From positions 47,186 to 111,185 of the forward strand of contig NIVC01003209.1 in NCBI GenBank assembly GCA_002269645.1: 64,000 nt of DNA. Direction: 5' to 3'. The DNA is from Macrostomum lignano. Lineage: Eukaryota. This document shows, in pieces, positions 1-14,821 of the stretch (the first letter of the stretch is position 1; each line of letters starts with the position of its first letter). Made by a program: the position numbers and the translations under genes. The notes below the pieces were generated by a model. It was not told the DNA's origin, ran no database searches, and was given only the letters and a program-made list of their open reading frames with translations.

Positions 1-415
1 TTTTGAAGTTCATGATTTTTCTATAAAATTTAGGTTTTCGGTATTCTTTATGAAGAACCTTTGCCTCATCAGAACCTAGCCCACTACCACTTAACAACAA
101 ACACTCAACACAATTATTTCCACGTTGATTGTAATTAATTCCTAAACCAAATTTAACTTTAGACTGTAGAATCTTTTTAACCATCCACCTAGTTAATCTT
201 TGGCTCACTGATAATCCTTGTAAATTATCTAATCCTTGAATCATTTTTTGATCTGCTTCATGTTTTAATTTTAATGCTTCCTCGGGTGAGTTCTTGTCAG
301 CATCTCTGTATGCTAAGTCATGATAATATGTTAGCCAATCAATACCGTTAATGGGAATTGAATCGGCTTTTGGAGTACTGTCAGGATTTAATCTCAAATC
401 CAATCGCGTCCCCGG
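1..415 (-). CDS. Exon 2 of PLA2-integrase fusion (runs off the window start)
   Basis: PGTRLDLRLNPDSTPKADSIPINGIDWLTYYHDLAYRDAD contains the PLA2 catalytic HD motif. It continues through HEADQKM and SKVKFGLG, then in frame into EAKVLHKEYRKPKFYRKIMNFK, which resembles the ELHKxxRK start of Polinton retroviral-like integrases. No stop before base 1. Confidence 0.85.
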
Positions 416-752
416 TAGTTTGCCCTCAATCTTTCGAAAGAGGCTGGAGCACACCTTAAGCGGATAAATTACCGCCCACCTCCGTCTGCTCTCTGAACCT
501 TCTCCATATCATATCAACCTATGACTTAGGAGCTTGGCTGCGCATTGACACCATCAGCCCATTGGGCTGCGGACTATGTCCGATGTCTTCAAGCTTGTTA
601 CCTTTGGGAAGAGGAGTTACCTCTGTTCCTTCAAAAGATTTCTCAATTGAAGTGGTACTTGAAGCTGTATGACGGGTTTCACGCAATTTGAAGATGTCGC
701 CACAAATAGTGACTAGCAGTAGCTTTGCTTCTACCACTCAGGCCACGGGTTA
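416..752 (-). ncRNA. Group I self-splicing intron, IC1-like, 337 nt, no internal endonuclease ORF
   Basis: P1: exon CAGGU pairs with IGS GCCUG (743-739), giving a U.G pair at the 5' splice site. P3: CAUCUUC (696-690)/GGAGGUG (483-477). P element AAAUUGCGUGAAA (689-677) and Q element AAUGCGCAGCCAAG (546-533). P5abc with GAAA tetraloop (642-639) and GGUAACAAG A-rich bulge. R element GUUCAGAGAGCAGAC (498-484). P8: GGCGG/CCGCU. S element UAAGGUGUGCUCC (458-446). P9.0: AG/CU. P9: CCUC/GAGG. Removing it restores the PLA2 reading frame. Confidence 0.92.
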
Positions 753-881
753 ACCTGTGAAGTTCATTGATGGTAGGTGTAACTCACCTGTATACCTCCC
801 AGTAGTAAAGATTGGTGGTAAGCTTGTTAATCCTTTTTGTAAGTCTAAAAATCCTCCTTCAAATACTAATTGATTGCTCAT
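753..881 (-). CDS. Exon 1 of PLA2 (parvovirus/adintovirus-type phospholipase A2)-integrase fusion
   Basis: ATG at 881 in an AAAAATG context. Translates MSNQLVFEGGFLDLQKGLTSLPPIFTTGRYTGELHLPSMNFTG, then an immediate TAA. ELHLPxxNFTG is the first half of the viral PLA2 Ca-binding loop. Absent from the supplied ORF track. Confidence 0.85.
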
Positions 882-968
882 TTTTAGTGACTAAAAAACA
901 ATTCTCTATCAATTTAATAATTTCTAAATATTGATCACCATATAAAAAATTTAAACCAAATTCCCCAC

Positions 969-1367
969 TTAACAAAGTAACACCATTATCAAATACCTTT
1001 TGTACGGGGTTTTTAGTAGTATTATTAATTTAGTATTATTAGTAATATCAAATTCGGGATTAACATATTTAAATTCTAATAACTTTTGAATATTTCTAAA
1101 TCTACTTGATGAATTATCTGTATTATCAGAAGATTTTAACTCTAACGCAATTTTTCTTTCGGTATGAATTAAATCAATTTTATTTACTTTTTCAAAACCA
1201 AAATGTTTAATAGCTAATAATTCATAAAGATATCCAAGTCTCATTTGAATTGTTTTAATACGGTTTGCAATTATTAATTCATCTTGAAATATTTTATTTA
1301 GTATTCTGTCAGAATCAACCTTATCACAAATAGGTTTACAAAGACAATCTTTTATCGTATTTTCCAT
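969..1367 (-). CDS. Putative PD-(D/E)xK (restriction-endonuclease-like) nuclease; C-terminal part of the 969-2066 ORF, probably a separate gene starting at 1367
   Basis: QMRLGYLYE...IDLIHTERKIALELKSSDNTDNSSS fits a D-x(n)-E-x-K active site and resembles the Eco47II-like ExKxxxNTxNSS motif. An internal AAAAAAATG start at 1367 follows an almost A/T-only linker. Confidence 0.55.
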   Translation of the reverse strand: MENTIKDCLCKPICDKVDSDRILNKIFQDELIIANRIKTIQMRLGYLYELLAIKHFGFEKVNKIDLIHTERKIALELKSSDNTDNSSSRFRNIQKLLEFKYVNPEFDITNNTKLIILLKTPYKRYLIMVLLC

Positions 1368-2066
1368 TTTTTTTAAAAAATTTTTAAAATTTAAATTAAT
1401 TCCTGTATGTCCTGCAGCTTTCGCAGCAGCTAAAACAAGTTTTCGCGGAGTTTTAAATCCTTCACCAACAGCTGGTTTGTTATTTATAGAATCAACAAAC
1501 CTTTTATACAAACTAGTATTTTTAGCAGCTTTCACTCCCAACTCATCATAAAAAATTTTAGCACTTACTAATTCGTCCCTACTATATAAATCAGGGTTAA
1601 ATCTTACCCTAGGGTTCATAATAATATTATATGCCCCACCCAATTCTCTATATAGCTCATTCCGATTTTTATCAATCCCACCAATTCGATAATTATCATT
1701 ACCTAAATCTGTCACAGCAATACTACGTGGCGCATCTCTTGGAAATTGTTCAACTCCGCCCCTTTCTCCAGCCCTAATCTCTGCAACTCTCAATAGTGCT
1801 TGATCAACATCATAAGTAGGCGGCTCATCCAAAATTTCATCCTCTTTTGGCTCCGTATTCTTAGCAATTTTTTCAAGAAGGTCTTTATCTGTTTTTTCTA
1901 GTTCACTAATTTTCCCCGTTATAGGATTAACAAAAAGGGCAGCAAATTTCTCACCAGCTAGCTGTATTCCTAACTTTCTTTTTTGTAAGTTTCTAACAAA
2001 ATCAGAATATCTTTGGTTCTCTTTATAAATCGCTAACTCTCCATCAACATCCATAAATTGACTCAT
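1368..2066 (-). CDS. Hypothetical Polinton/adintovirus protein (N-terminal part of the 969-2066 ORF)
   Basis: Long open frame with viral-like composition and an AAAAAATG start, head-to-head with MCP. Function not recognised with confidence. Confidence 0.6.
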
Positions 2067-2100
2067 TTTTTAACATAAAAAACTTTTTTAACTTTAAAAA

Positions 2101-3582
2101 ATGGCCGAAACAAAAACCATATGGAGTGATAAATTTCATTTCAAAAAGCATCGCCAGTATATTAATGAGATCAGGGCAAGAGATATAAATTTTACTCAAC
2201 CAACAAGCGATAATTCAAACAATTTTACTACGGGAACCATAACTTTTGACATCGGCGCAACCAACAGCATATTGGATATGAAAAATGCGTTTTTCCGCGT
2301 TAGATGGCTGTATACCAGAAATGATGGAACTGCTCTTGCAGCTGTTGATATTGCAGATCGTTCTGGTATTATTATAGAAAACGATTGGTTTTATAAATGT
2401 TTTTCACAAGCCCAACTAACAGTTAATGGAGCCGACGTTGAGACAGCATCAAACCCAGCAGAGATTAATGGAGTTTTGAAACATTTAAATTATACTTATT
2501 TATCAAAACAAGTTGGTGATAGTGTTGGATGGATGCCGGATAAGGGTAATGGACAAGCGGTAGTGTTCCCCAACGTACAAAACGCAGCTGGCGCAGATAC
2601 CGCAGCTCTTATTGCTTATCTTAATACCAATATAGTTCCAGTTGTAACTACAATGACTAACACAAAAGATATTAACACTGGTTTTATAGATCGTCAGAAT
2701 AAATTCCCAGTCGCGGTTTTAACCACAGCAACTGCATATGAACAGGACTTTTCAATCTTCCCACTATTTGGGTTCTTCTCACCAAATCGGGTATGGAAAG
2801 GATTAAAATTTGGTATTCAGTTGCAAATATCTGGTGGATATCAGCCTAGGATACTTTATGGAAATTCGATTTCAACCGATATAGCAGTTCGTATAGCTTC
2901 AATTCAATTAGCAGTACCAACTATTGAGGTAACAGCCCCACTTTTAAAACATATCAACGATCAGTTAATGCTTGATCAGGAAGTATTTTATTTGAATCGT
3001 CGGCACTTTATGCGAACTATTAATAACAATCAGGATTTTTTCCAGTGGCAGATAATGCCAACAAGCCGTCGGGTGAGATATATTTTTGTTTGGTTTAAGA
3101 TAACAAATAGAAGGAGTAAAAGAGCAAACGGGGATTTATATTGGCTTCAATCAGGAGACGTAGCAGCACAGGCAGCCACCGCAACCGACAATGCGGTTTC
3201 AGCTATTAACGAGTTTAATGTCCAGGATATTCGCCTAGTGGTTGATGATCAATATTATCCAGTTGCAAGACCTCTTAATCTAAACATAGCAAATAATAAT
3301 GTTAATGATTTTATAAAATATTATCAGGATTATGTCAAAAATGAAGCGTATGCTGTTCCTCAGTACACACCAACGGAGTTTCTAAACATTCACCCAATAG
3401 TTGTTTTTGATCTAACCGCACAGAAAGAAAATGTATCCAACGATGGTTTGAATTATATGTTGGAGATTAATAAAACCGGTAATCAGGCATTAGATGCCCA
3501 CGTGTTGTTTCTAGAGGAATTTATGTCAATTGCTAAAGCAGACGGCACCATTGTTAAGGAAGCACCCATAGATAAAAAGTAG
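2101..3582 (+). CDS. Major capsid protein (double jelly-roll, hexon-like)
   Basis: 493 aa, beta-rich. C-terminal RLVVDDQYYP and HPIVVFDLTAQKE motifs resemble Polinton/adintovirus MCPs. Lies beside the ATPase and minor capsid genes. Confidence 0.8.
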   Translation: MAETKTIWSDKFHFKKHRQYINEIRARDINFTQPTSDNSNNFTTGTITFDIGATNSILDMKNAFFRVRWLYTRNDGTALAAVDIADRSGIIIENDWFYKCFSQAQLTVNGADVETASNPAEINGVLKHLNYTYLSKQVGDSVGWMPDKGNGQAVVFPNVQNAAGADTAALIAYLNTNIVPVVTTMTNTKDINTGFIDRQNKFPVAVLTTATAYEQDFSIFPLFGFFSPNRVWKGLKFGIQLQISGGYQPRILYGNSISTDIAVRIASIQLAVPTIEVTAPLLKHINDQLMLDQEVFYLNRRHFMRTINNNQDFFQWQIMPTSRRVRYIFVWFKITNRRSKRANGDLYWLQSGDVAAQAATATDNAVSAINEFNVQDIRLVVDDQYYPVARPLNLNIANNNVNDFIKYYQDYVKNEAYAVPQYTPTEFLNIHPIVVFDLTAQKENVSNDGLNYMLEINKTGNQALDAHVLFLEEFMSIAKADGTIVKEAPIDKK

Positions 3583-3601
3583 TTAAATTATATCCTTAAA
3601 A

Positions 3602-4369
3602 ACGGTAAAAGCAAAACACGATAAGATATTTCCAAATGATCCTTTTCTTTGTTTAGTAATTGGTGGGTCTGGCAAAGGAAAAACCCACTTTGTTTATGAC
3701 GTGTTAACAACCGACGGAATGTTAGACTATAATAATTTAATAATTTATACTAACAAACCCCGAATTAAATATTATGAATTTCTTAAACATGGATTAAAAA
3801 ACAAATTAAAAAAAGATGTCTTGTTTAGAATGTTAAGAGCATATGAGCAATATGAGGATGATGACGAACCACGATTTAATCTAGCAGACATTGAGGATTT
3901 ATGTAAAACAATGGCACAAGAGCCGGAAAATAATGCTAACAACCCCCCAACTGTTAAAATATCAACCCGATTATCCTATGATCAAATTCCAGAACATGAT
4001 AAAACACTAATTATTTTTTACGATTGTATTAATGATGGCGATCAAGAATTGCAAAAAGAAATTTTTGTTAGTGGTAGAGGAGATGGAATTGGAGCATTTT
4101 ATCTTACTCAATCCTTTAGAGAATTAGAATCGATTATAAAAAAGAACGCAAGTTGTTGTGTAATGTTTGATTTAGATAACTATGATCTACAAAATATACA
4201 TGCGAGATTTAATCCTGGGTTGGATGTAAAACCATTCAAAAGCATGTGTAAAAAAATTTGGGATGATAGTCAATACAAACACATATATATCAACCCTAGG
4301 TTAGAAAGGAAAAATCGAATCTTAAAAGATCTGATACACTATAATGAGGACGAGGATGATCGGACGTAG
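3602..4369 (+). CDS. A32/FtsK-like DNA packaging ATPase; start codon appears as ACG
   Basis: The frame stays open upstream of the listed ORF and includes Walker A CLVIGGSGKGKT (3650-3685), Walker B-like LIIFYD and the GRxxxIxxFYLTQS motif. There is no in-frame ATG upstream of Walker A; AAAAACG at 3602 matches the AAAAATG context of neighbouring genes. Confidence 0.88.
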   Translation, partial: TVKAKHDKIFPNDPFLCLVIGGSGKGKTHFVYDVLTTDGMLDYNNLIIYTNKPRIKYYEFLKHGLKNKLKKDVLFRMLRAYEQYEDDDEPRFNLADIEDLCKTMAQEPENNANNPPTVKISTRLSYDQIPEHDKTLIIFYDCINDGDQELQKEIFVSGRGDGIGAFYLTQSFRELESIIKKNASCCVMFDLDNYDLQNIHARFNPGLDVKPFKSMCKKIWDDSQYKHIYINPRLERKNRILKDLIHYNEDEDDRT

Positions 4370-4414
4370 TCCGCGAGCCACTGGCACGATTAAGGTAAGT
4401 TTCCCACTATAAAA

Positions 4415-5210
4415 ATGGCTACAAATTTGGATACTATAAAACAATTGGTAGATCGAACGAGTTCAAAATTTAGTACAACCTTACAGTTTATAATGACAAG
4501 TAGTGAGCAGCGGATTCAATTGCGCGATCCGATAAAACTCGATCAAACCCTAAGTTATCAAGTTGGTTTGATACTATTTTCGGTTTTTAACATGCCCCAA
4601 TTAATTAATTCAACAAATAATCAATTTAGATATTCTAAAGATTCAGGAAGATTCAGGAGCCAATTGGACAACATTTAGCGTTAATCCGGGTGCTTATAGC
4701 TATACCGATTTGAATGCTTATATAGAGGGAGAATTAACAGCTAATGGTGATTGGGTAGCAGGCGCAATTGTTATAGGGGTTGATTTACCATCTGGTAGAT
4801 TCACACTATCCCTAGGATCCGGATATCAGGTTGATTTTACAATTGCATATTCACTCAGAACCATACTAGGATTTAATTCCCGAATAGTTACCACATCAAG
4901 CACCGGCGATACAGTGGGAAACATTGAGGGTGGAGTCAACACAATTAATATAACAACCGACATATCAAACGGTAGTTATATAACAGATGATAAAGGGGTT
5001 TTGGTTCAACGTGGGATTATTTATACAATCCCGTTTCTTGCGGTTCCAATTGGAGAGAAAATGATTGTTGCACCCCAAACCCCAATATATTATCCTTTAA
5101 ATCAATATAGCGTTCAATCAATTTATATTAGGATCGTAGACGAAAGCGATAAGTTAATAAGTTTTGGCGGACAGTCAATAACAGTAATTTTAAGAATAAA
5201 ACAGGTTTAA
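4415..5210 (+). pseudogene. Minor capsid protein (penton), frameshifted
   Basis: PIKLD..YQVGL...NNQFRYSKDSG motif. A 10-bp tandem duplication AGATTCAGGA (4639-4648, 4649-4658) breaks the frame; deleting one copy gives SKDSGANWTTFSVNPGAYSYTDLNAY and joins the two ORFs. Confidence 0.8.
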
Positions 5211-5220
5211 CACTGTAAAA

Positions 5221-5394
5221 ATGGGTAACAACACCGCTTTAAAAAAACAATCAGATAAAGTTCAAAAGGCAAAAGATAATTATGAAATAGAACTAACAAA
5301 ATTTAAACAACTTCAAGCAGAAAAAATTCGAAAGGAGTTGTTAAAACCCACGGATACTAAACTAACTAAAACCAAGAGTTTTTCAGGAACATAA
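5221..5394 (+). CDS. Small basic 57-aa viral protein (MGNNTALKK...)
   Basis: AAAAATG start and exact fit between the penton and protease genes. Gly2 could be myristoylated (inference). Confidence 0.5.
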   Translation: MGNNTALKKQSDKVQKAKDNYEIELTKFKQLQAEKIRKELLKPTDTKLTKTKSFSGT

Positions 5395-5395
5395 A

Positions 5396-5866
5396 ATGAC
5401 TATGAGTTGGGGCGAGTTCAAAAAAAGATATGGAACAGACACAACAAGCAATATTGAATTAACAAATTGGGCGAGACAATTAAAAATAAAACCATTTAGA
5501 TGCGTTATGCGGGATGAGATAAAAGACTTACCAAGATATGGATCTTTCATTGTTAATATAGAAACGACAAAAGAAAATGGTGTTCATTGGTCAGCAGTTT
5601 ATTCAAAACCTAAACTTGTTTATTTTTTTGATTCATATGCACTTCCTCCACTACAGGAAATAAAAGACAAATTTAATCATACTAAAAATCGTTTATGTGG
5701 AGATTATCACGAACAGTTTCAAACCTTTGACAAAAGTTATTGTGGACAAGCGGCGTTATATTTTTTATATCGACTTTCGAATGAAGCTCGTGTAAACCCA
5801 GAAGTATTTAAGACTATCATACAAAGTATGCGACCCTACGGGGCGATTTTAGACTCTATAAAATAG
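5396..5866 (+). CDS. Adenain-like cysteine maturation protease
   Basis: Catalytic pattern GVHW...FFDSY...Q...YCG (His-Asp-Cys with oxyanion Gln), typical of Polinton and adenovirus proteases. Confidence 0.9.
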   Translation: MTMSWGEFKKRYGTDTTSNIELTNWARQLKIKPFRCVMRDEIKDLPRYGSFIVNIETTKENGVHWSAVYSKPKLVYFFDSYALPPLQEIKDKFNHTKNRLCGDYHEQFQTFDKSYCGQAALYFLYRLSNEARVNPEVFKTIIQSMRPYGAILDSIK

Positions 5867-5876
5867 GCAGTAAAAA

Positions 5877-7860
5877 ATGTTATTTTCTGGAACACCCTCA
5901 TGGAATGGAACAACAAGTACTGGTGGTGGTACATCTGGCGGAATAAGTGTTACATTCGGAGATAACCGATATATTAATGAAGATGAAGGTTATAAAAAAA
6001 CTGAAATTGATACTAAACTAAATTTAAAACGGAATGTTGCAGATTCCTATACCAAAACTCAAATCGACGATTCATTAAATCTGAAAAGAGATATAAGTGA
6101 TTCCTATACCAAAACCGAAGTCGATAATTCATTAAATTTGAAACGCAATACAGCCGATTCCTATACCAAAACCGAAGTTGATAATTCATTAAATTTGAAA
6201 CGCAATACCGCTGATTCATATACAAAACAGAAGTTGATAATGGGTTAAATTTAAAAAGAGATATAACTGATTCTTATTCTCGAACTGATTCTGATTCGCG
6301 TTATGTTCAAACCACCGCAACCGGAACCTTAGATATGGATAACAACCGAATTATAAATGTTTCAATTACAACTAGTAATTCGGTAGTTGATAAGAACTAT
6401 GTCGATAATCAGGTTGCTAGTCGTAATGGTAATATTAATATGAATAATTTTAAATTAACAAATTTATTATTTGGGTCAGAGGACGCAGACTCGGTGACTC
6501 TAGGCCAAGTAAATGAGCGAGCTAATGCGACAGACGCCGATATTTTTGCCACACCGCTTACATCAAATACTTCAAATCCTGATGTTGTTCTTACAGCATC
6601 CGAAAATACCAACGATGCTTTTCGAGTTGGAGATGGAAGCCTTGCGACACAATGGTCACCAAATACCGGAACCACAACCAATATGGAAATTCAATTTGAA
6701 TTTTTAGGATATAATCGAAGAATAAATGAATTAAGAATTACAGGCAGCCCAACAATTGATATCCCATCTGGATGGTCGGTGCGCGCAAAAAATGCTGCTG
6801 GCGACGCATGGACGGTATTAGGAACGTCGGGATCACCAATTCAAGCAACTTCATTTGCGTTAACTAATTTAACGGTTAATTTTTGGAAATATTATAGCGT
6901 TTTATTCCCAACTGGTGGGACAGTTACGCAACCTATCGAAGTTCGCTTAATACAATTATTTGAACACCGGGTTGAAATTCAAGATCTTAATTGGCCGAAT
7001 CAAATACTTTCTGCAACCCCGCGAGCATACGTAGATCAGTTAGCAACCACAACTTCAAATGGTAGAATGTCTGCAGGTGATAAAAATAAATTGGATAATA
7101 TTCCCGCGATTGATGCTGCATTATTCGAGACAGTAATTTGCAATTGGACTGGATATCAAAATCCAACAACCGCCGGAGATATATATCCAGTTGGTTCTTT
7201 AATTGGCGACGCTTCTTATATCGATTATCAAAATGGCGCTAGAATTACTCGTGAAACCTCAGGTGTAAGTGGTGCTTTACAATTCAATTTCACACATTTT
7301 CAAAATATATCGGCGTCTTTCTTTTTCCGAGTTGCTTATTCTACAGGAGGTGGTGCAGATGCCGTTTGGTTTTATGCATATTGTCACGAACGCCCAACAA
7401 CCGAAAGTGGGGCAGGTTTAGCAACAGACGCCGGATTGATAGTTTTTGCAAGTGAGTGGCATGATAAATTTGGCCTACTTTGGAGTTCTAAAAAATCAGA
7501 CGGATCAAGCCGCGCGGATGTTAATACTGACGCGGATCAAACGGTAGACTATGCAAATATTGATAACGGCGATTGGCATTTATTTGAAATTAATATTCTT
7601 AATCAAAGGGTTTGGTATCGATTAAATTCATACAATGTTTCAACAGATGCTTATACTCTAATTGGGCAAAATGTTTTACTTATGATAGTGTGAATTGGGG
7701 AACTTTAGATAAATCTGGAACCCTTATGGGTTTTGGTGGTCGAACCGGAGGATCGGATGCTGCACATTTTATTCGTGGCGCTGCCGTTTGTGGTAGCTCA
7801 TCGTTTGGTTATGTTTTTCCATCTACTGGTTATTTAGAAAAACCACCCGTAGCAATATAG
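5877..7860 (+). pseudogene. Fibre/spike-like structural protein: 19-aa repeats, discoidin (F5/8 type C)-like domain and L-type lectin-like domain; two frameshifts
   Basis: About five SYTKTEVDNSLNLKRNTAD repeats and MDNNRIINV..VDKNYVD shaft-like motifs. ASEN..AFRVGDG..ATQWSP..WKYY is discoidin-like. GGADAVWF..DGDWH..GFGGRTGG is lectin-like. One-base loss in an A run near 6225; second frameshift near 7655. Confidence 0.65.
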
Positions 7861-7912
7861 GGTGAGGACTTCGTCCGTCCGCCTGTGGCAATATAAAATA
7901 TTTCTATATAAA

Positions 7913-8239
7913 ATGGCTTTTAGTAGAACCCCATCGATGCGGCAAAATAATGTTATTATTCCCATTCCTAAACAAGAACCGATTATAAAAACTTTTAAAT
8001 CTCATACCAAATTTTTATTTAGTACTGTGAATGTTTAGGATAATAAAAAGCTTCAAGAATTAATTAAACTATTAAAAAATCATATTATATTACAAGAGTT
8101 TTGGAAGATTGGATTTAAATGGGAGAAAAAAGAAAGAATAAGTCCGATACAATATCTATTGAGCTCAGGACAAATCCCCAAAGAGCGCGGGGAATTCATT
8201 TTGGTGCTATTAAAAATAGACGAAAATGTCAGTGTCTGA
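7913..8239 (+). pseudogene. Viral hypothetical ORF with one internal stop (TAG 8036-8038)
   Basis: AAAATG start; the frame stays open after the TAG until TGA at 8237-8239. Confidence 0.45.
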
Positions 8240-8620
8240 AGCAGATAAAAGGGAGCGGGACCATTTTAATCAGCGCAAGGGTCACATGTTAATTAATGTT
8301 GATCGAATAAATTATGATTATGATTTATATAGTAAAAAAGTAAGAAGAGTTTCAAACCATATCAGAAATATGGATTTTTTCAATATTGGTTTTGGAAGTT
8401 TATCGATGTTATGTGTAATCGTTTTAGGTATTTTACAGTCTGTTCCAACTCTTAATTTATCTCAATTATTTTTAGGTATTTCAATTGGTTCAATATCAGG
8501 TTTTGAATTAATCAGAAACTTATCAATACTTTTAGCTATTAAATTATATCTTAAAAAACGAAAGGAAAAATATAAGACCTATAAGACCCATATTATCTTT
8601 AACAAAATTTACTGCTGTAC
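8226..8620 (+). CDS. Viral membrane protein, probably truncated by unrelated downstream DNA
   Basis: Two hydrophobic segments followed by basic KKRKEKYK. Composition changes after ~8620. Confidence 0.5.
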
Positions 8621-8748
8621 CTGCCAAATCAAAAAGCCCCTCACCTCGGTATTCAACTGGGTCTCCTACCTGCAATTCATTCAGATTTTGTATATGCGTA
8701 ACGTGTGCCATTTTTGTCTATTTTTAGTAACAGAAAAAAGATTGTCTG

Positions 8749-8846
8749 CATTCCATTTAGACCAGATTTTAGACCAGATTTTTGAAAACGAAAACCAAAA
8801 CGATAGCCTGGTTTCGTTTGGTCTAAAATCTGGTCTAAATGGAATG
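8749..8846. repeat. Palindromic/hairpin element
   Basis: 28-bp perfect inverted arms CATTCCATTTAGACCAGATTTTAGACCA / TGGTCTAAAATCTGGTCTAAATGGAATG, with inner arms AAACGAAAACCA/TGGTTTCGTTT. Confidence 0.8.
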
Positions 8847-8998
8847 TTGGGTGGGTAGGTGAGCTGACTATAAATACGAGCTAGCTTCTATTCTTTCTCT
8901 ACCAAAACTTCCAGACCCTTCGCGCCTGCGGCGCGTCGGCGGGTTATAGAGTGTTTATGTGTGTTGGGGAGAGTTGGAAGTGTTGGAAGTGTTGGGTA

Positions 8999-9234
8999 CG
9001 GTACAAAATTGCCAGCAAACCAAAGCGAGCGACGAGAGCGTATTCTCATAATTCAAAGAGAATTAATCGTTGTAAGTGTGAAATGAGTTGATTGACCGAA
9101 ATGAAGCGAGGATGAGCGAAGCGAGTTGAGCGAAGTGAAGACGAGCGATAATGAAGGGAAAACGAGTCATTTCACACTGATAAAGGGTAAAATTGATTGA
9201 ATTATGAGAAGGGTTTGCTGGCCATTTTGTACCG
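8999..9234. mobile_element. MITE, Tc1/mariner-like (TA target)
   Basis: 23-bp TIRs CGGTACAAAAT(T/G)GCCAGCAAACC flanked by TA on both sides. Confidence 0.8.
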
Positions 9235-9624
9235 TATATACTACTAACGCACATACCCTAACGGATGCTAAAAATTGAACAATTATGTCAATGCGGAATA
9301 AAAATGCAATATTCACTCCAACGCGAAAATTTTACAACTTTTTTTTGAATTTAGAAAATATTGTTGAAATCGAAAATAAATATTTTGATAGCAAAATGCG
9401 ATTTAATATATAGGGGAATATATAAAGCACCGGGCTGGAACTCGGAAACCACAACTGATTAAAACTCGAAAAGACAGCGGATTTGAATCTTAAAAAACGA
9501 ATTAGACGCAAAAAATACTCAGCCAAGTGACACGCAAAGGCAGCTCTGCTGGAACAGCGCACAAATGCACAACTCAAGCACAAACTGCGCAGGTCGCAGA
9601 AATCGTCAAAAAAGATTGTCAGAC

Positions 9625-12600
9625 TCACACTAGGACCCAGCCATCGTCAAGAACTTCGCTGCTGCAGTCGCTGGTCGCCTCACTCCGCGCCGGGTCGGGA
9701 GCGCGGGGCTGGTGCGCACGTTTCAGCTTGTTTGCGTGGACCACCCGACCGGTGTCGCCGTCCTTGTAATCGATAGGACGAACCAGGTAGTTCACCGGCG
9801 ACGTTCGCTGCAGCACCCGGAACGGGCCGGTCCAGGGCGCCTGGTGTTTCGGAGCCAGTCCAGTCGTCCTTGAAAGCGCCGCCGGCGGAACGAAAACCCA
9901 TACGAGGTCGCCCACCCGGAATCTGCACCGCTTGGCCTTCCGGTCGTAGTACCGCCGCTGGCGTCGTTGTGCCGTCGCCATCAATCGCCGCACGGAGTCG
10001 TAGGCGCGAAGCAGCTGGTCGCGGTTGTTGGCGGCGAACTGGCCGACTGTCATTGGCGGCTCCGGTGGCCGGTAGACGACGTCAACTGGAAGCGTCATTT
10101 CCCGGCCAGTCAGCAGGCAGTGAGGAGTAAACCCGGTTGTAGCATTGACGCTGCTGCGGTAGGCCAGGAGACAATGCGGCAGCACTTCTTCCCAGTCCTC
10201 CGGCTGAACTGACTGCAGGTGGCAGCGGAGCATCTGGTGCAGAGTGCGGTGGAACCTTTCTACTAGGCCGTCGCACTGCGGATGGTAGCCGGATGTCCGC
10301 GTCTTCTGAATCTCCAGCAGCCGGCACAGGCTCCTGATGACCTTTCCGTCCACGGCCTTGCCACGGTCGGAGTGCAGAATGTGCGGGGCTCCGAAACGCG
10401 TCACCCAGTTGTCGAACAGTGCCTTGACGATGGTGGCCGCTTTCTCGTCGGGGAGTGGCACCAGCTCGACCCACTTGGTGAAGTAGTCGACAATGGTGAG
10501 CAGCCGATCGTTTCCCCGCCGTGACAGTCCAACTTTGACCACGTCGATGCCCACGCGCTGCATAGGAAATCCACTGGCCATAGTCTGCAGTGGAGCTCGG
10601 CGCTGACTCGGTGTCTTAGCGCGCTGGCACACTTGGCAGGACCTTACCGCTAGGCGAACGCTCTCCGCCATTTTCGGCCAGTAGCAACGCTGCTTGAGGG
10701 CTGCCAAGGTCTTGTCCTCGCCCAGATGCCCAAGCTCATGGACCTCCTCGATGAACTCCTGTCTGCAGCGCGGAATCACAGGCACCGGCTTGGACTTCAC
10801 CAGCTTGTTCAGGGCGCCGTCGACGAAACACAGTTCGCCGATCTTCTGTGCCAGAATTAGGCTCTCAGGCGACAGTCGGTCACGTCTGCTGGCGCTGAAC
10901 CTTGTCTTGCCGTTTGACAGCAGGCGAAACACCGGGCCGATGTCTAGATCACGGAGCTGCAGTTCACGCAGTGACTGAGACGCATCTGACAGCGCCTCGC
11001 CTTCCTTCGCTGATTTCGTCTTCGCTGGAGTCCTCGCTCTCGCTTGGCCGCGGTTGAAGCTGCTGCTTCCGCCTTGAGGTGCCCTGACGTTCCGGCTCGG
11101 CGTTGGTCTGGGCAGCCGCAGAGGTAGCCGGCGCTGGTTTGGTTGCGTTGGTTTGCACGGAGTTGACTCTGACTGTGTCGACCCGGCCAGCAGGCTCCGC
11201 TATTGGCACTGGCGCCTCGACCGTCGGCTCCGTCTGGCAGGCGGCTGTTGAAGTCTCGGCTGGCGCCACCGCTGTCGTCCCTGGCCGACACACTCGACAC
11301 TGGCTGGTGCACTTTTGCTCTCGCCGAGAGAGGGCGTCTGCGTTGCCGTGTTGGCGGCCTCGGCGAAAGACGACCTTGAAGTTGAACTCATCGAGCAGCT
11401 GCAGTCATCTGGCCAGCTGGCCTTCGAGCTCTTTGAATGCCAGCAGATAAATGAGCGCCTGGTGATCCACTCGAACGGTGAAGGCGCGCGGCAGCAGGTA
11501 GCTCCGGAACTTCTTAACAAACTCGACAACAGCCAGGAGCTCGCGCCGCGTCACGCAGTAGTTGCGCTCAGCTCTTGACAGGGCGCGGCTGGCGTAGGCG
11601 ATAACCCGCTCTTCGCTCGCCTGCACTTGCGACAGCACCGCGCCGATTGCGCAGTCACTTGCGTCGGTGTCGAGGATGAATTCGGAGCCCGACTCGCTCA
11701 TGTCCGGGAACGCCAGGATCGGAGCTGACAGCAGCGCTTGCTTCAGCTGGTTGAAGGCCGCCTCGGCTTCTGGCGTCCACTCGAAGGGCGTCGGCAGTGT
11801 AAGGCGGCGCAGAGGCTCGGCGATCTTGGCGTATTCGCGCACAAATCTTCGGTAGTAGGAGGTCATGCCGAGGAAGCTCTTGACGTCCTTCGAGCTCCGG
11901 GGCACCGGCCAGTCCCGCACAGCCGCGGTTTTGCCCTCATCGACGGTGATGCCGGTCTTGCTGACGCGGTGGCCCAGGACTAACATGCTGGTATTTGCAA
12001 ATCGGCACTTTGACGGCTTGAGGCGCAGGTTAAACTCGCGCAGTCGCTCCAGAACTGAACGCAGCCGATCGTTGTGCTGGCCGATGGTCTGGCTCATCAT
12101 GATGACGTCGTCAATGAACACCAGACAGGCCTGCCACGTCAGTCCCCGGAGCACCAGCTGCATGAGCCGCTGAAAGGTGGCTGGTGCATTCCGTAGTCCG
12201 AACGGCATCACGTTGAATTCAAACAGGCCTTCATGGGACACAAATGCCGTCTTCTCCTTGTCCCGGTCATTCATCTCGACTTGCCAGTAGCCACTTTCGA
12301 GATCCAGCGCTGAGAAGTAGCTGTTTCCTTCGAGGGCATCCAGAGTGTCATCGATGCGGGGCATCGGGAATGCATCGGGCTTGGTCACCGCGTTCAGCAG
12401 GCGTTAGTCCAAACAAAATCTGGCCGACCCGTCCTTCTTGCGAACCAGAACTATCGGAGAAGCCCAAGGTGACGACGATGGTCGGACGACTCCCTTTGCC
12501 AGCATCTCGTTGACAAGCTCCTTCTGCTGTGCGATCGCTGTGGGAGCCAGCGCCGCAGTCCTTGGCGAATTGGCCTGGCGTCGCCTGTCTCGATCTTGTG

Positions 12601-13548
12601 CTTCAACAACTGCGTGCGGCCTGGGTTGCTGGGGCTCGCGAAGACGTCGCTGAACTCCAGCAGAAGTCGTTGAACTTGATGCCGCTCCTCGGTTGGTATG
12701 TCATCGGCTATTTGCACCTGGTCCTGCCAGGTCGTTGCAGTAGTCGGATCTGCCTCGCTGCCATCACCAGATCCTCCGGCTTGCAGATGCGCCAGGGCTC
12801 GGCCAGACAGCGGGTTGAAGTTGCCGACGATGTCGCCCTCCTTGATCTCGACTGTCTCATCTCTGGTGTTGATTACAGCAACCCCCATTCCGTGGTCAAC
12901 CAGCTTGGACACGCTGCGGCCGATCATCACTTTGGCCGCCTTGCTGCCGCAGACAACGCCTGGTGCCTCCGAGTTCGTCCACGCTGCCGCGCTCGCTGGC
13001 CGCACCGGAATGATCCAGCCATCGCCTGGCTGCAGTCGAACCGTGGCTGCCGCTGCCAGCTTGCAAGTCTGGGCCGCCTGCCTGGATGTCCGCATTGGCA
13101 AGGTGACGCCGAGGCCGTTAAACTCGAGAATGCCTGATCTCAGGTGGATCGAAATGTCAAATTTGTTTAGGAAGTCGCAGCCCAGAATTACCGGTGCGCT
13201 GAGGCAGGTCACTGCCAGGAATCTGTGTCGAAAATGAAGCGGACCAAGAAAAAAACTTATCTCAATTTCGCCCAGCACTGTTGCTTGATTGCCGCCCACG
13301 CCATAGATGGTTGTTGAGCTGGGTCTCAGCTGCCGCCTGAGCCTGGCCGAGTGCACGATGTCGCCGTTGATGCAGGAGATCTCGGCACCGGTGTCGATCA
13401 TGCACGGCCGGCGTTTTCTGAGCATGCGCGAGGTGATGAAGCGCACTTGGTCGGGCTGGCAGCTGGGGCGTGGGGGCTGGGCCGAACTGCTTAGTGCTGA
13501 GAGGGCCGGTGCTGGCCCATTGGACCAGCCCCCCCAACGTTTGGGCAC
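9625..13548 (-). pseudogene. pol: Gypsy pol (protease, RT, RNase H, integrase) with premature stops and frameshifts
   Basis: PR IDTGA; RT LVFIDD; RH DTDASD and VDHQAL; IN HxxGH-CxxC, GIDVV, HSDRG, GLVERFHRTL and GPF motif. In-frame stops near 12404 (D*R) and 11405 (AR*LQ). Confidence 0.92.
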
Positions 13549-14821
13549 CTCCGGCGGATGTGGCCAGGCTGATGGCAGCCGTAGCAGATGGGCACCGCCC
13601 TAGGCTGCTGCTGTTGATGTGCAGCGGCGTCAGCTGATCTCCATGGTGGCGCTGGGGCTGTCTGCGCTCGATGAGCCGCTGGCTGGTGATGTTGTGTCGT
13701 CTGTGGCCCATGCTGCGGTCGGGTTTCTGTCGGTGTTGACTGAGCTGGTGCCGCTGGAGCTGACGCCTCGGCGCTGTGGTGCTGCGACTGGGAATTCATT
13801 ATCTGCCGGGTCTCGCGCACTTGCTGGGCATAGTGCAGGGCCTGATCCGGTGTAGTAAGAGGCAGCTGCATATTAAGCAGCCGCTCCGTCACGTAGTTGT
13901 CGTTCAGCCCTTGAATGAACCGCTCAAGCACAGTCTGCTGGCGACAGTCTTGAGCACCGAGCTCTGGGTAGGCCTTGAACGCGAGTCGCTGGAGGGCAGT
14001 CAGAAAATCCTCGAACCTCTCGTCCCTGCCCCGGCACAGCTGTGAAGCTCGCGCCGAAGTAGCGCAGTGCTGGTGGCACCGCCATGACGAGCGCGAAGGT
14101 GCTGCAGGAGATCTTCATAGCGGGCACCTGGCAGGAACTGCAGTGAAGTCCCAACGGGCTGTCCATGCTGCGCGCACAGTTGGTAGAGCCAGACCTCGTA
14201 GGTAGCGAATGCTGGTCCCAGGTAACTGCTGAGCGTGTTGATCTTGCTGTAGTCACTCAGTCCTTGGTGCCGGCTTAAATACGAAGACACTCGACCCAGA
14301 AAGTCATCGAACGGTTCGGATCCGTTGAAGGGCGCCGGCTTTGGCACCGACGGAAGCTGGATTGCTTGTTGATATACCGGTGCGCACAGGTTGCGGGCGC
14401 CAGCGCCAGGGTGAGTTCCGCCTTGGAGCAACGGAGCCCATGGTTCGGCCATACGGTGCACAGGTCTTGGTGGATGTGTCACTGCAGCTGCCGCAGCTAC
14501 CGCGGAAGGCCTGGTGTCCAGCAGGAATGAGTCTCCCGTCTCCATGTAGTTCGTTGATGGTTGGCCGGGCCCGGGGGGCACTGGCACTTGAGACTGACAG
14601 CAGCGTGCTTCATCGACAGAGATTTGCACAGGATCGAGGTCACGAAGCTCTTGATAGCGCCGCCAGTTCGCCTCCCGTTCGGATTCTGGCTCACTGGTTG
14701 ACGAAGAGGTGTAAGCCGTAGCCGCAGCGGTCGGACGTAAAATATCGCGATTTCTCAGTCTTAGCCGTTGAGGCTCTTCTGCCTCACGTTCTGACCACAT
14801 GATGATCGATGACAGGTGCAA
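13491..14821 (-). pseudogene. gag: Gypsy gag with CCHC zinc knuckle, frameshifted near 14000
   Basis: PAPFNGSEPFDDF major-homology-like region; CYGCHQPGHIRRRC knuckle. Confidence 0.85.

Follow-up and report, generated by a model that had tools for sequence, protein, structure and literature searches.

Group I introns end in G almost without exception, a regularity that is not a defining feature, as the available text of two sources already records departures from it (PMC8146996, PMC6545197). The locus studied here raises the question of what it means when such an intron ends in A. The window, which is the whole stretch of 64,000 nucleotides of Macrostomum lignano DNA that was analysed, contains a 337-nt group I intron on the minus strand (752-416). 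This intron lies in an integrated Polinton, where it interrupts the PLA2-like/integrase gene, and at its last position A416 stands in place of the terminal G. A preliminary description of the sequence had offered three options: a decay mutation or assembly error, a natural terminal-A variant, or use of G413 as the true terminal base. The reading we prefer, with a probability of roughly 0.6, is that the terminal A is a tolerated natural allele and likely the 3' splice site, placed by the predicted P9.0 and P10 pairings and probably used less efficiently than a G.

The intron and its boundaries

The intron matched the Rfam model RF00028 at 425-761 (E 1.5e-11; gathering score 50). This match was absent from a faster whole-window scan at the gathering threshold and was recovered by a covariance-model search; the introns of sister copies scored 54.8-85.2 bits against the same model. 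Judged from the fold, the intron appears to be IC1-like with a P5abc extension. Subgroup IC1 is marked by a P5abc extension with an A-rich bulge, by P2/P2.1 and by P, Q, R and S motifs of its own type; of these marks, the helices were observed. The features of the gene and its intron are as follows.

753..881, minus strand: exon 1 (PLA2-like/integrase gene), 43 codons beginning with the ATG at 881; natural intron-less ORFs have a homologous N-terminus
416..752, minus strand: group I intron; RF00028 50.7 bits, helices kept across copies, fold z -2.4
739..749, minus strand: internal guide; P1 pairs exon bases 757-753 with 743-739 (U753-G743 wobble), P10 strand 749-744
555..584, minus strand: 30-nt insert that forms a double hairpin and separates P5a from P5, among the aligned loci found in the window copy only
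446..493, minus strand: P7, 493-487 with 451-446, the P3 3' strand and P8 lying in between
417..445, minus strand: P9.0 enclosing P9; A445-U417 and G444-C418, i.e. 445-444 with 417-418
416..416, minus strand: terminal intron base, A and not G, placed by the fold and by intron-less alleles; the majority state in the genome
1..415, minus strand: exon 2, PLA2-like domain; the frame leaves the window and goes on into an rve integrase domain

Exon 1 closes with the codon GGT, and its last base, 753, is the U of the U-G pair of P1. In the alignment P1 was paired in 211/215 cells of the 43 A rows, and the U-G pair at the 5' splice site was present in 43/43 A rows and 19/19 G rows. Removal by the spliceosome through the GT at 754 was ruled out by the reading frame. 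The intron ends in C418, T417 and A416, and exon 2 opens with CCG GGG at 415. The proposal that P9.0 (AG at 445-444 with CU at 418-417) places the intron end at A416 held in all its coordinates. It agrees with natural intron-less alleles, six among 146 loci (L071, L096 and L097, and L102, L104 and L105 of a divergent family), in which the exons are joined directly at exactly the intron site; the terminal base is thus fixed at 416 by these alleles and not by the fold alone. P10 had been said to favour the same site, and indeed P9.0 and P10 both indicate 416. The G-binding pair of P7, G491-C447, was seen intact and unchanged, as described before, with A492 bulged.

The host element

The element that carries the intron is a Polinton, with terminal inverted repeats, a 6-bp target duplication, an rve integrase and a packaging ATPase. 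Its other features in the window are listed below.

890..1367, minus strand: Eco47II-like endonuclease ORF, free-standing and frameshifted in the window copy; match below the cut-off (E 0.002)
2101..3582, plus strand: putative major capsid protein, assigned from its size and position; no family match
3587..4369, plus strand: A32-type packaging ATPase (PF04665, E 5.8e-5)
8913..9245, no strand: terminal inverted repeat on the right, 333 bp; identity with the left repeat, which lies outside the window, is 99.4%

The target-site duplication was found at 9246-9251, just beyond the right repeat. On the natural intron-less L071 the PLA2-like domain matched PF08398 (E 2e-7), and the rve integrase domain matched PF00665 with E values from 1.1e-6 (on L071) to 1e-7. 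The fusion of the two domains is common in metagenomes, where 366 homologues were found. Beyond this genome, the exon-2 protein was encoded by none of the viral contigs, and the 16 scanned of 80 metagenome loci gave no Rfam match. Candidate ORFs for a double jelly-roll capsid and an adenain-like protease had no family or PDB match.

The window copy itself is an 11.3-kb internally deleted Polinton that has several broken frames and lacks PolB, whereas sister copies have PolB matches (PF03175) at about 10-11 kb from the intron. The earlier remark that this viral copy bears other lesions agrees with the internal deletion and with frameshifts in other genes. Although it has no PolB, the window copy is flanked by a clean target duplication from its integration, which suggests that complementation occurs; the integrase could be supplied in trans.

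The terminal base across the genome

Exact patterns over the last 33 intron bases were found genome-wide 79 times with a terminal A (window included), 26 times with G and 0 times with C or T. A DNA search for copies gave 173 candidates, of which 40 were scored and 30 fetched; of these 30 closest copies 24 end in A and six in G. We classified 142 of 146 loci (four remained unclassified) into 104 distinct haplotypes, namely 64 with A, 23 with G, 11 with a second intron type and six intron-less, in a sample that includes all 26 G matches but just a portion of the A matches. Wnt genes occur in 2-4 near-identical copies, so that the raw counts are too high, though we see no reason for a bias toward A; the Wnt family, which marks the host as an animal, has 86 matches in the genome, and three Wnt-bearing contigs also carry the intron.

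The terminal A is therefore a common natural allele and the majority state, and only purines occur at this position. This is the check on other genomic copies that the preliminary description had called for, and it showed that the A is not private. Internal deletion and frameshifts in other genes of the window copy would fit a private decay mutation or assembly error, and such an origin had been called plausible. It is refuted by the 79 of 105 pattern-matched copies that end in A on many contigs, by the A in most of the closest copies and by A-type ends in contigs of the runs X3, X5 and X19 (three studies, one of which may be the source of the assembly), and we regard it as practically excluded. 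The census instead supports the natural variant.

Integrity of the copies that end in A

The two classes were compared by aligning 43 introns that end in A with 19 that end in G. In the A rows the core helices were paired in 301/301 (P3), 257/258 (P4), 129/129 (P6) and 258/258 (P7) cells, and P7 was paired in 114/114 cells of the G rows, so that the core is kept as well in A as in G introns. P2 and P9 showed double-sided changes, and P3 showed changes of the wobble type. Exon 2 was open for at least 380 codons in 37/57 A and 13/21 G haplotypes. No in-frame ATG lay upstream in 56/57 A haplotypes, and the first Met was codon 58 in 47/57; because a start codon is missing there in most copies, codons 1-58 are translatable only after splicing. 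In this first part of exon 2 piN/piS was 0.10 for 50 A haplotypes and 0.067 for 17 G haplotypes, after 11 of 90 with indels were dropped. The 18 bases after the terminal A came in 19 versions, 16 of which encode PGTRLD. Exon-1 length was a multiple of three in 46 of the 49 A haplotypes scored (eight were unscored), despite inserts of 30 and 60 bases. Overall, the A-copies were no more decayed than the G-copies.

On the intron tree, whose support is weak and in which two partial rows have long branches, the terminal base changed between A and G 13 times as compared with a shuffled mean of 16.1, and A and G were intermixed. Linkage to the terminal base faded within about 10 bases (r2 0.6 at +3, 0.34 at +6 and 0.06 at +10), so that the clean exons and helices of A-copies may come from G-ending or intron-less copies by recombination. 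Conservation in the A-copies could then be borrowed through fine-scale mosaicism, which weakens the argument from selection. Variants restricted to A-copies had synonymous to non-synonymous ratios of 11:7 when shared and 15:27 when single (Fisher p 0.09); if the neutral share is taken to be 0.24, p was 0.0009. The synonymous lean of the shared variants is suggestive only.

This mosaicism speaks for an alternative in which A is a null or near-null allele. The intron would then persist by shielding the DNA from a GGNCC-type endonuclease, and the integrase would be made from an internal start codon or be provided in trans by copies that end in G, have the second intron type or lack the intron; the clean integration of the PolB-less window copy, which points to complementation, also fits. 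We consider this reading unlikely. C and T were never seen at the terminal position, and the decay of A-copies was no greater than that of G-copies; these results and the couplings described next weigh against it.

Couplings of the terminal base

P9.0 was intact in 64/64 A haplotypes as compared with 15/23 G haplotypes, and when only distinct local haplotypes were counted in 27/27 and 8/14, respectively, a contrast that may stem from about three mutation events. The first codon of exon 2 was CCG in 6/64 A and 22/23 G haplotypes (6/27 and 13/14 distinct local haplotypes). A polymorphic site six bases upstream was unlinked to the terminal base (12/64 A, 4/23 G). Nominal p values for these couplings overstate their strength, because the mutation events are few and the copies related. 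That P9.0 is unbroken in every A haplotype, and that the terminal base is coupled to position +3 and not to -6, would be unexpected for a null allele.

According to the accessible part of one source, P9.0 and P10 both contribute to the definition of the 3' splice site (PMC6155759). The simplest reading of the couplings is redundancy, in which P9.0 may lapse when the intron ends in G and not when it ends in A. The G at +3 may be avoided after A as a competing site, or CCC may give an unbulged P10. Compensation for the A by a stronger P10 was unsupported, as the predicted mean P10 energy was weaker in A-copies (-5.7 kcal/mol) than in G-copies (-7.0 kcal/mol). We also looked for a P7 change matching the terminal base and found none. 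P7 was identical in A and G rows, and a switched-pocket, adenosine-specific ribozyme was rejected for this reason; the identity indicates tolerance of A and not a switch to adenosine.

The same counts bear on the possibility that a downstream G is the true terminal base, G413 in the window copy, which would leave a product in frame and one residue shorter. The window copy does have a G at +3, and for this copy the proposal could stand. The Pro that would be lost is variable, since several of the 26 homologue rows have changes of the A or A/N type there, and the second intron type at the same site seems to have shifted its 3' end downstream. As a general explanation it failed, because the +3 G is mostly missing from A-copies and the next G, at +4, is out of frame in 51/57 A haplotypes. 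With P9.0 and P10 pointing to 416, and with the rarity of CCG after A suggesting that this route is disfavoured, we find a downstream terminal G improbable.

GGNCC sites and the endonuclease

In window positions 1-9245 the word GGNCC occurred once as compared with 14.4 expected and a minimum of six in 60 shuffles, and in 16.4 kb of a sister copy it did not occur at all. One GGNCC lies exactly at the exon junction of intron-less alleles. Eco47II cuts GGNCC. A homologue of the Eco47II type was found within the intron of the divergent L103 (E 4e-6, above the cut-off), and the endonuclease was present in 15/57 A, 3/21 G, 3/9 second-type and 0/3 intron-less copies, unsorted by terminal base. The depletion of the word in the element and its place at the intron-less junction favour the null allele as a rival, as the intron would protect the DNA at any splicing rate. 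Since such protection is independent of splicing rate, it also favours the tolerated allele, for which a low output suffices.

How A-ending copies may splice

If the terminal A is a tolerated allele, the first step of splicing would use free guanosine as usual. In the second step the A would fit the G pocket poorly, and exon joining would probably be slower but accurate. The A-copies would for this reason need P9.0 to be unbroken, and a G at the third base of exon 2 would mostly be avoided in them. The intron may persist because it splits a GGNCC word predicted as the target of the family's endonuclease, and modest splicing could then be enough for its spread.

A bolder form of this account takes the terminal A to be the main working allele, with the G pocket unchanged and the end defined through P9.0 and a matching first codon of exon 2; A and G would be settings of integrase output, and the intron would shield the DNA. 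We hold this form as tentative and would expect it to fail rather than hold. If true, coexisting and recombining A and G versions would act as high- and low-output settings of an integrase, in a nuclear, virus-borne ribozyme of an animal.

Inosine is a weak substitute for guanosine. Rescue of the A by a host factor, for example by A-to-I editing that makes it G-like, would bring splicing under host control. The A sits between two short helices, and group I introns needing host factors are known from the available portion of a published source (PMC3679873), but genomic G-copies mask editing in unphased contigs, and we rate host rescue as very improbable.

Joined exons were sought in sequencing runs. 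Among the 32 of 163 pieces listed for the runs X3, X4, X5 and X19 none bridged the intron-less junction of L071, and none was listed over window positions 1-1000 for the runs X1, X3, X5 and X6. The runs were assessed as contigs only, with RNA type guessed; because the sequenced material may have been DNA and integrated copies may not be transcribed, the missing joined exons are evidence neither way. Contig ends at 752-753 were rejected as a trace of splicing, being due to variants at 782-783.

Comparison with known introns

The closest likeness is with the hexacoral intron ND5-717, also a group I intron in an animal protein gene without terminal G. In the available text of two reports, ND5-717 ends in A and its exons are perfectly ligated in vivo with lower efficiency, more than 70% of the precursor is unspliced in mushroom corals, and the intron has been suggested to escape 3' hydrolysis and circle formation (PMC6545197, PMC8146996). 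As described there, ND5-717 is mitochondrial, obligatory, vertically inherited and huge. The Polinton intron, in contrast, is nuclear, viral, compact and optional, A and G segregate, and splicing is predicted.

By its title, a study by Raghavan et al. in 2007 (J Bacteriol 189:6572) reportedly dealt with a self-splicing group I intron of Coxiella burnetii without the canonical terminal G. Coxiella introns sit in bacterial rRNA, whereas the Polinton intron sits in an animal protein gene; the portion of the literature available to us places them in the 23S rRNA (PMC4990558).

RF00028 introns of 309-376 bp occur inside protein genes of endogenous Polinton-like viruses, which in the accessible sections of the source are those of Rhodomonas, Paulinella and Desmodesmus only, in a short gene beside the capsid gene (PMC12220804). 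Here, by contrast, the host is an animal and the gene is the PLA2-like/integrase gene. In partly available texts, group I introns in nuclei are described as restricted to rRNA genes (PMC3679873) and those in Polinton-like viruses from protists only (PMC12220804), and in the literature searched we found no report of such introns from an animal nuclear genome.

Introns in RNA polymerase and capsid genes of giant viruses from IMG/VR (contigs L129, L132-L136 and L138) have the same unusual P7 and J8/7 and a similar P5abc, and such introns are a likely source pool. By reading frame they end in G in L129, L132, L133 and L138 and in A in L135. Because giant-virus introns with the same P7 mostly end in G, this P7 variant is not an A-specific adaptation. 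The A-ending intron of L135 lies in an RNA polymerase gene and has the same P7 variant, and its same-site relatives in L133 and L138 end in G.

The terminal A itself was already known; what is new is that A and G segregate within a single viral population and show testable couplings to the sequence around them. The published cases consulted of 3' end finding without a terminal G are fixed, single-state introns, and no mutational study of the terminal A was found in the literature searched. The dozens of natural A and G haplotypes with the same core and exons are ready-made pairs, with the predictions that A needs P9.0 and avoids a G at +3. Should A-copies splice, a polymorphism in a ribozyme would determine how much of a viral integrase is present in an animal nucleus.

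Other introns and modules in the neighbourhood

A second group I-like intron was found at the same 5' site in L089-L095, L101 and L106-L108 (e.g. L089:1712-2045). It had no Rfam match, its core is presumably IE-like by its motifs, and it has P2, P2.1 and P5abc pieces in common with the first type. Its modelled P10 favours a 3' site that ends in G and lies eight bases further on; with this site the PLA2 loop would lose its Pro-Gly codons. In L101:873-2039 the P8 of a second-type intron is interrupted by about 830 inserted bases, which seem to be a further mobile element. The divergent Polinton family of L103 has at the same site an 880-nt, G-ending intron (L103:1195-2074; 85 bits). The Eco47II-like ORF of this intron lies in P2.1, whereas its homologue in the window copy is free-standing upstream of exon 1.

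Double-hairpin modules of 30 bases were seen at three places: at 555-584 of the window, in P5c of L035 and others, and at the start of exon 1 in many copies, where they are in frame and stackable, giving 30 or 60 bases. In appearance these modules resemble a very small palindromic mobile element. In the viral contig L131, seven or more group I intron matches stand in tandem within 2.3 kb, with very little sequence between them. Finally, a Gypsy-type LTR retrotransposon with RT, RNase H and integrase frames adjoins the Polinton end at about 9600-14000 of the window.
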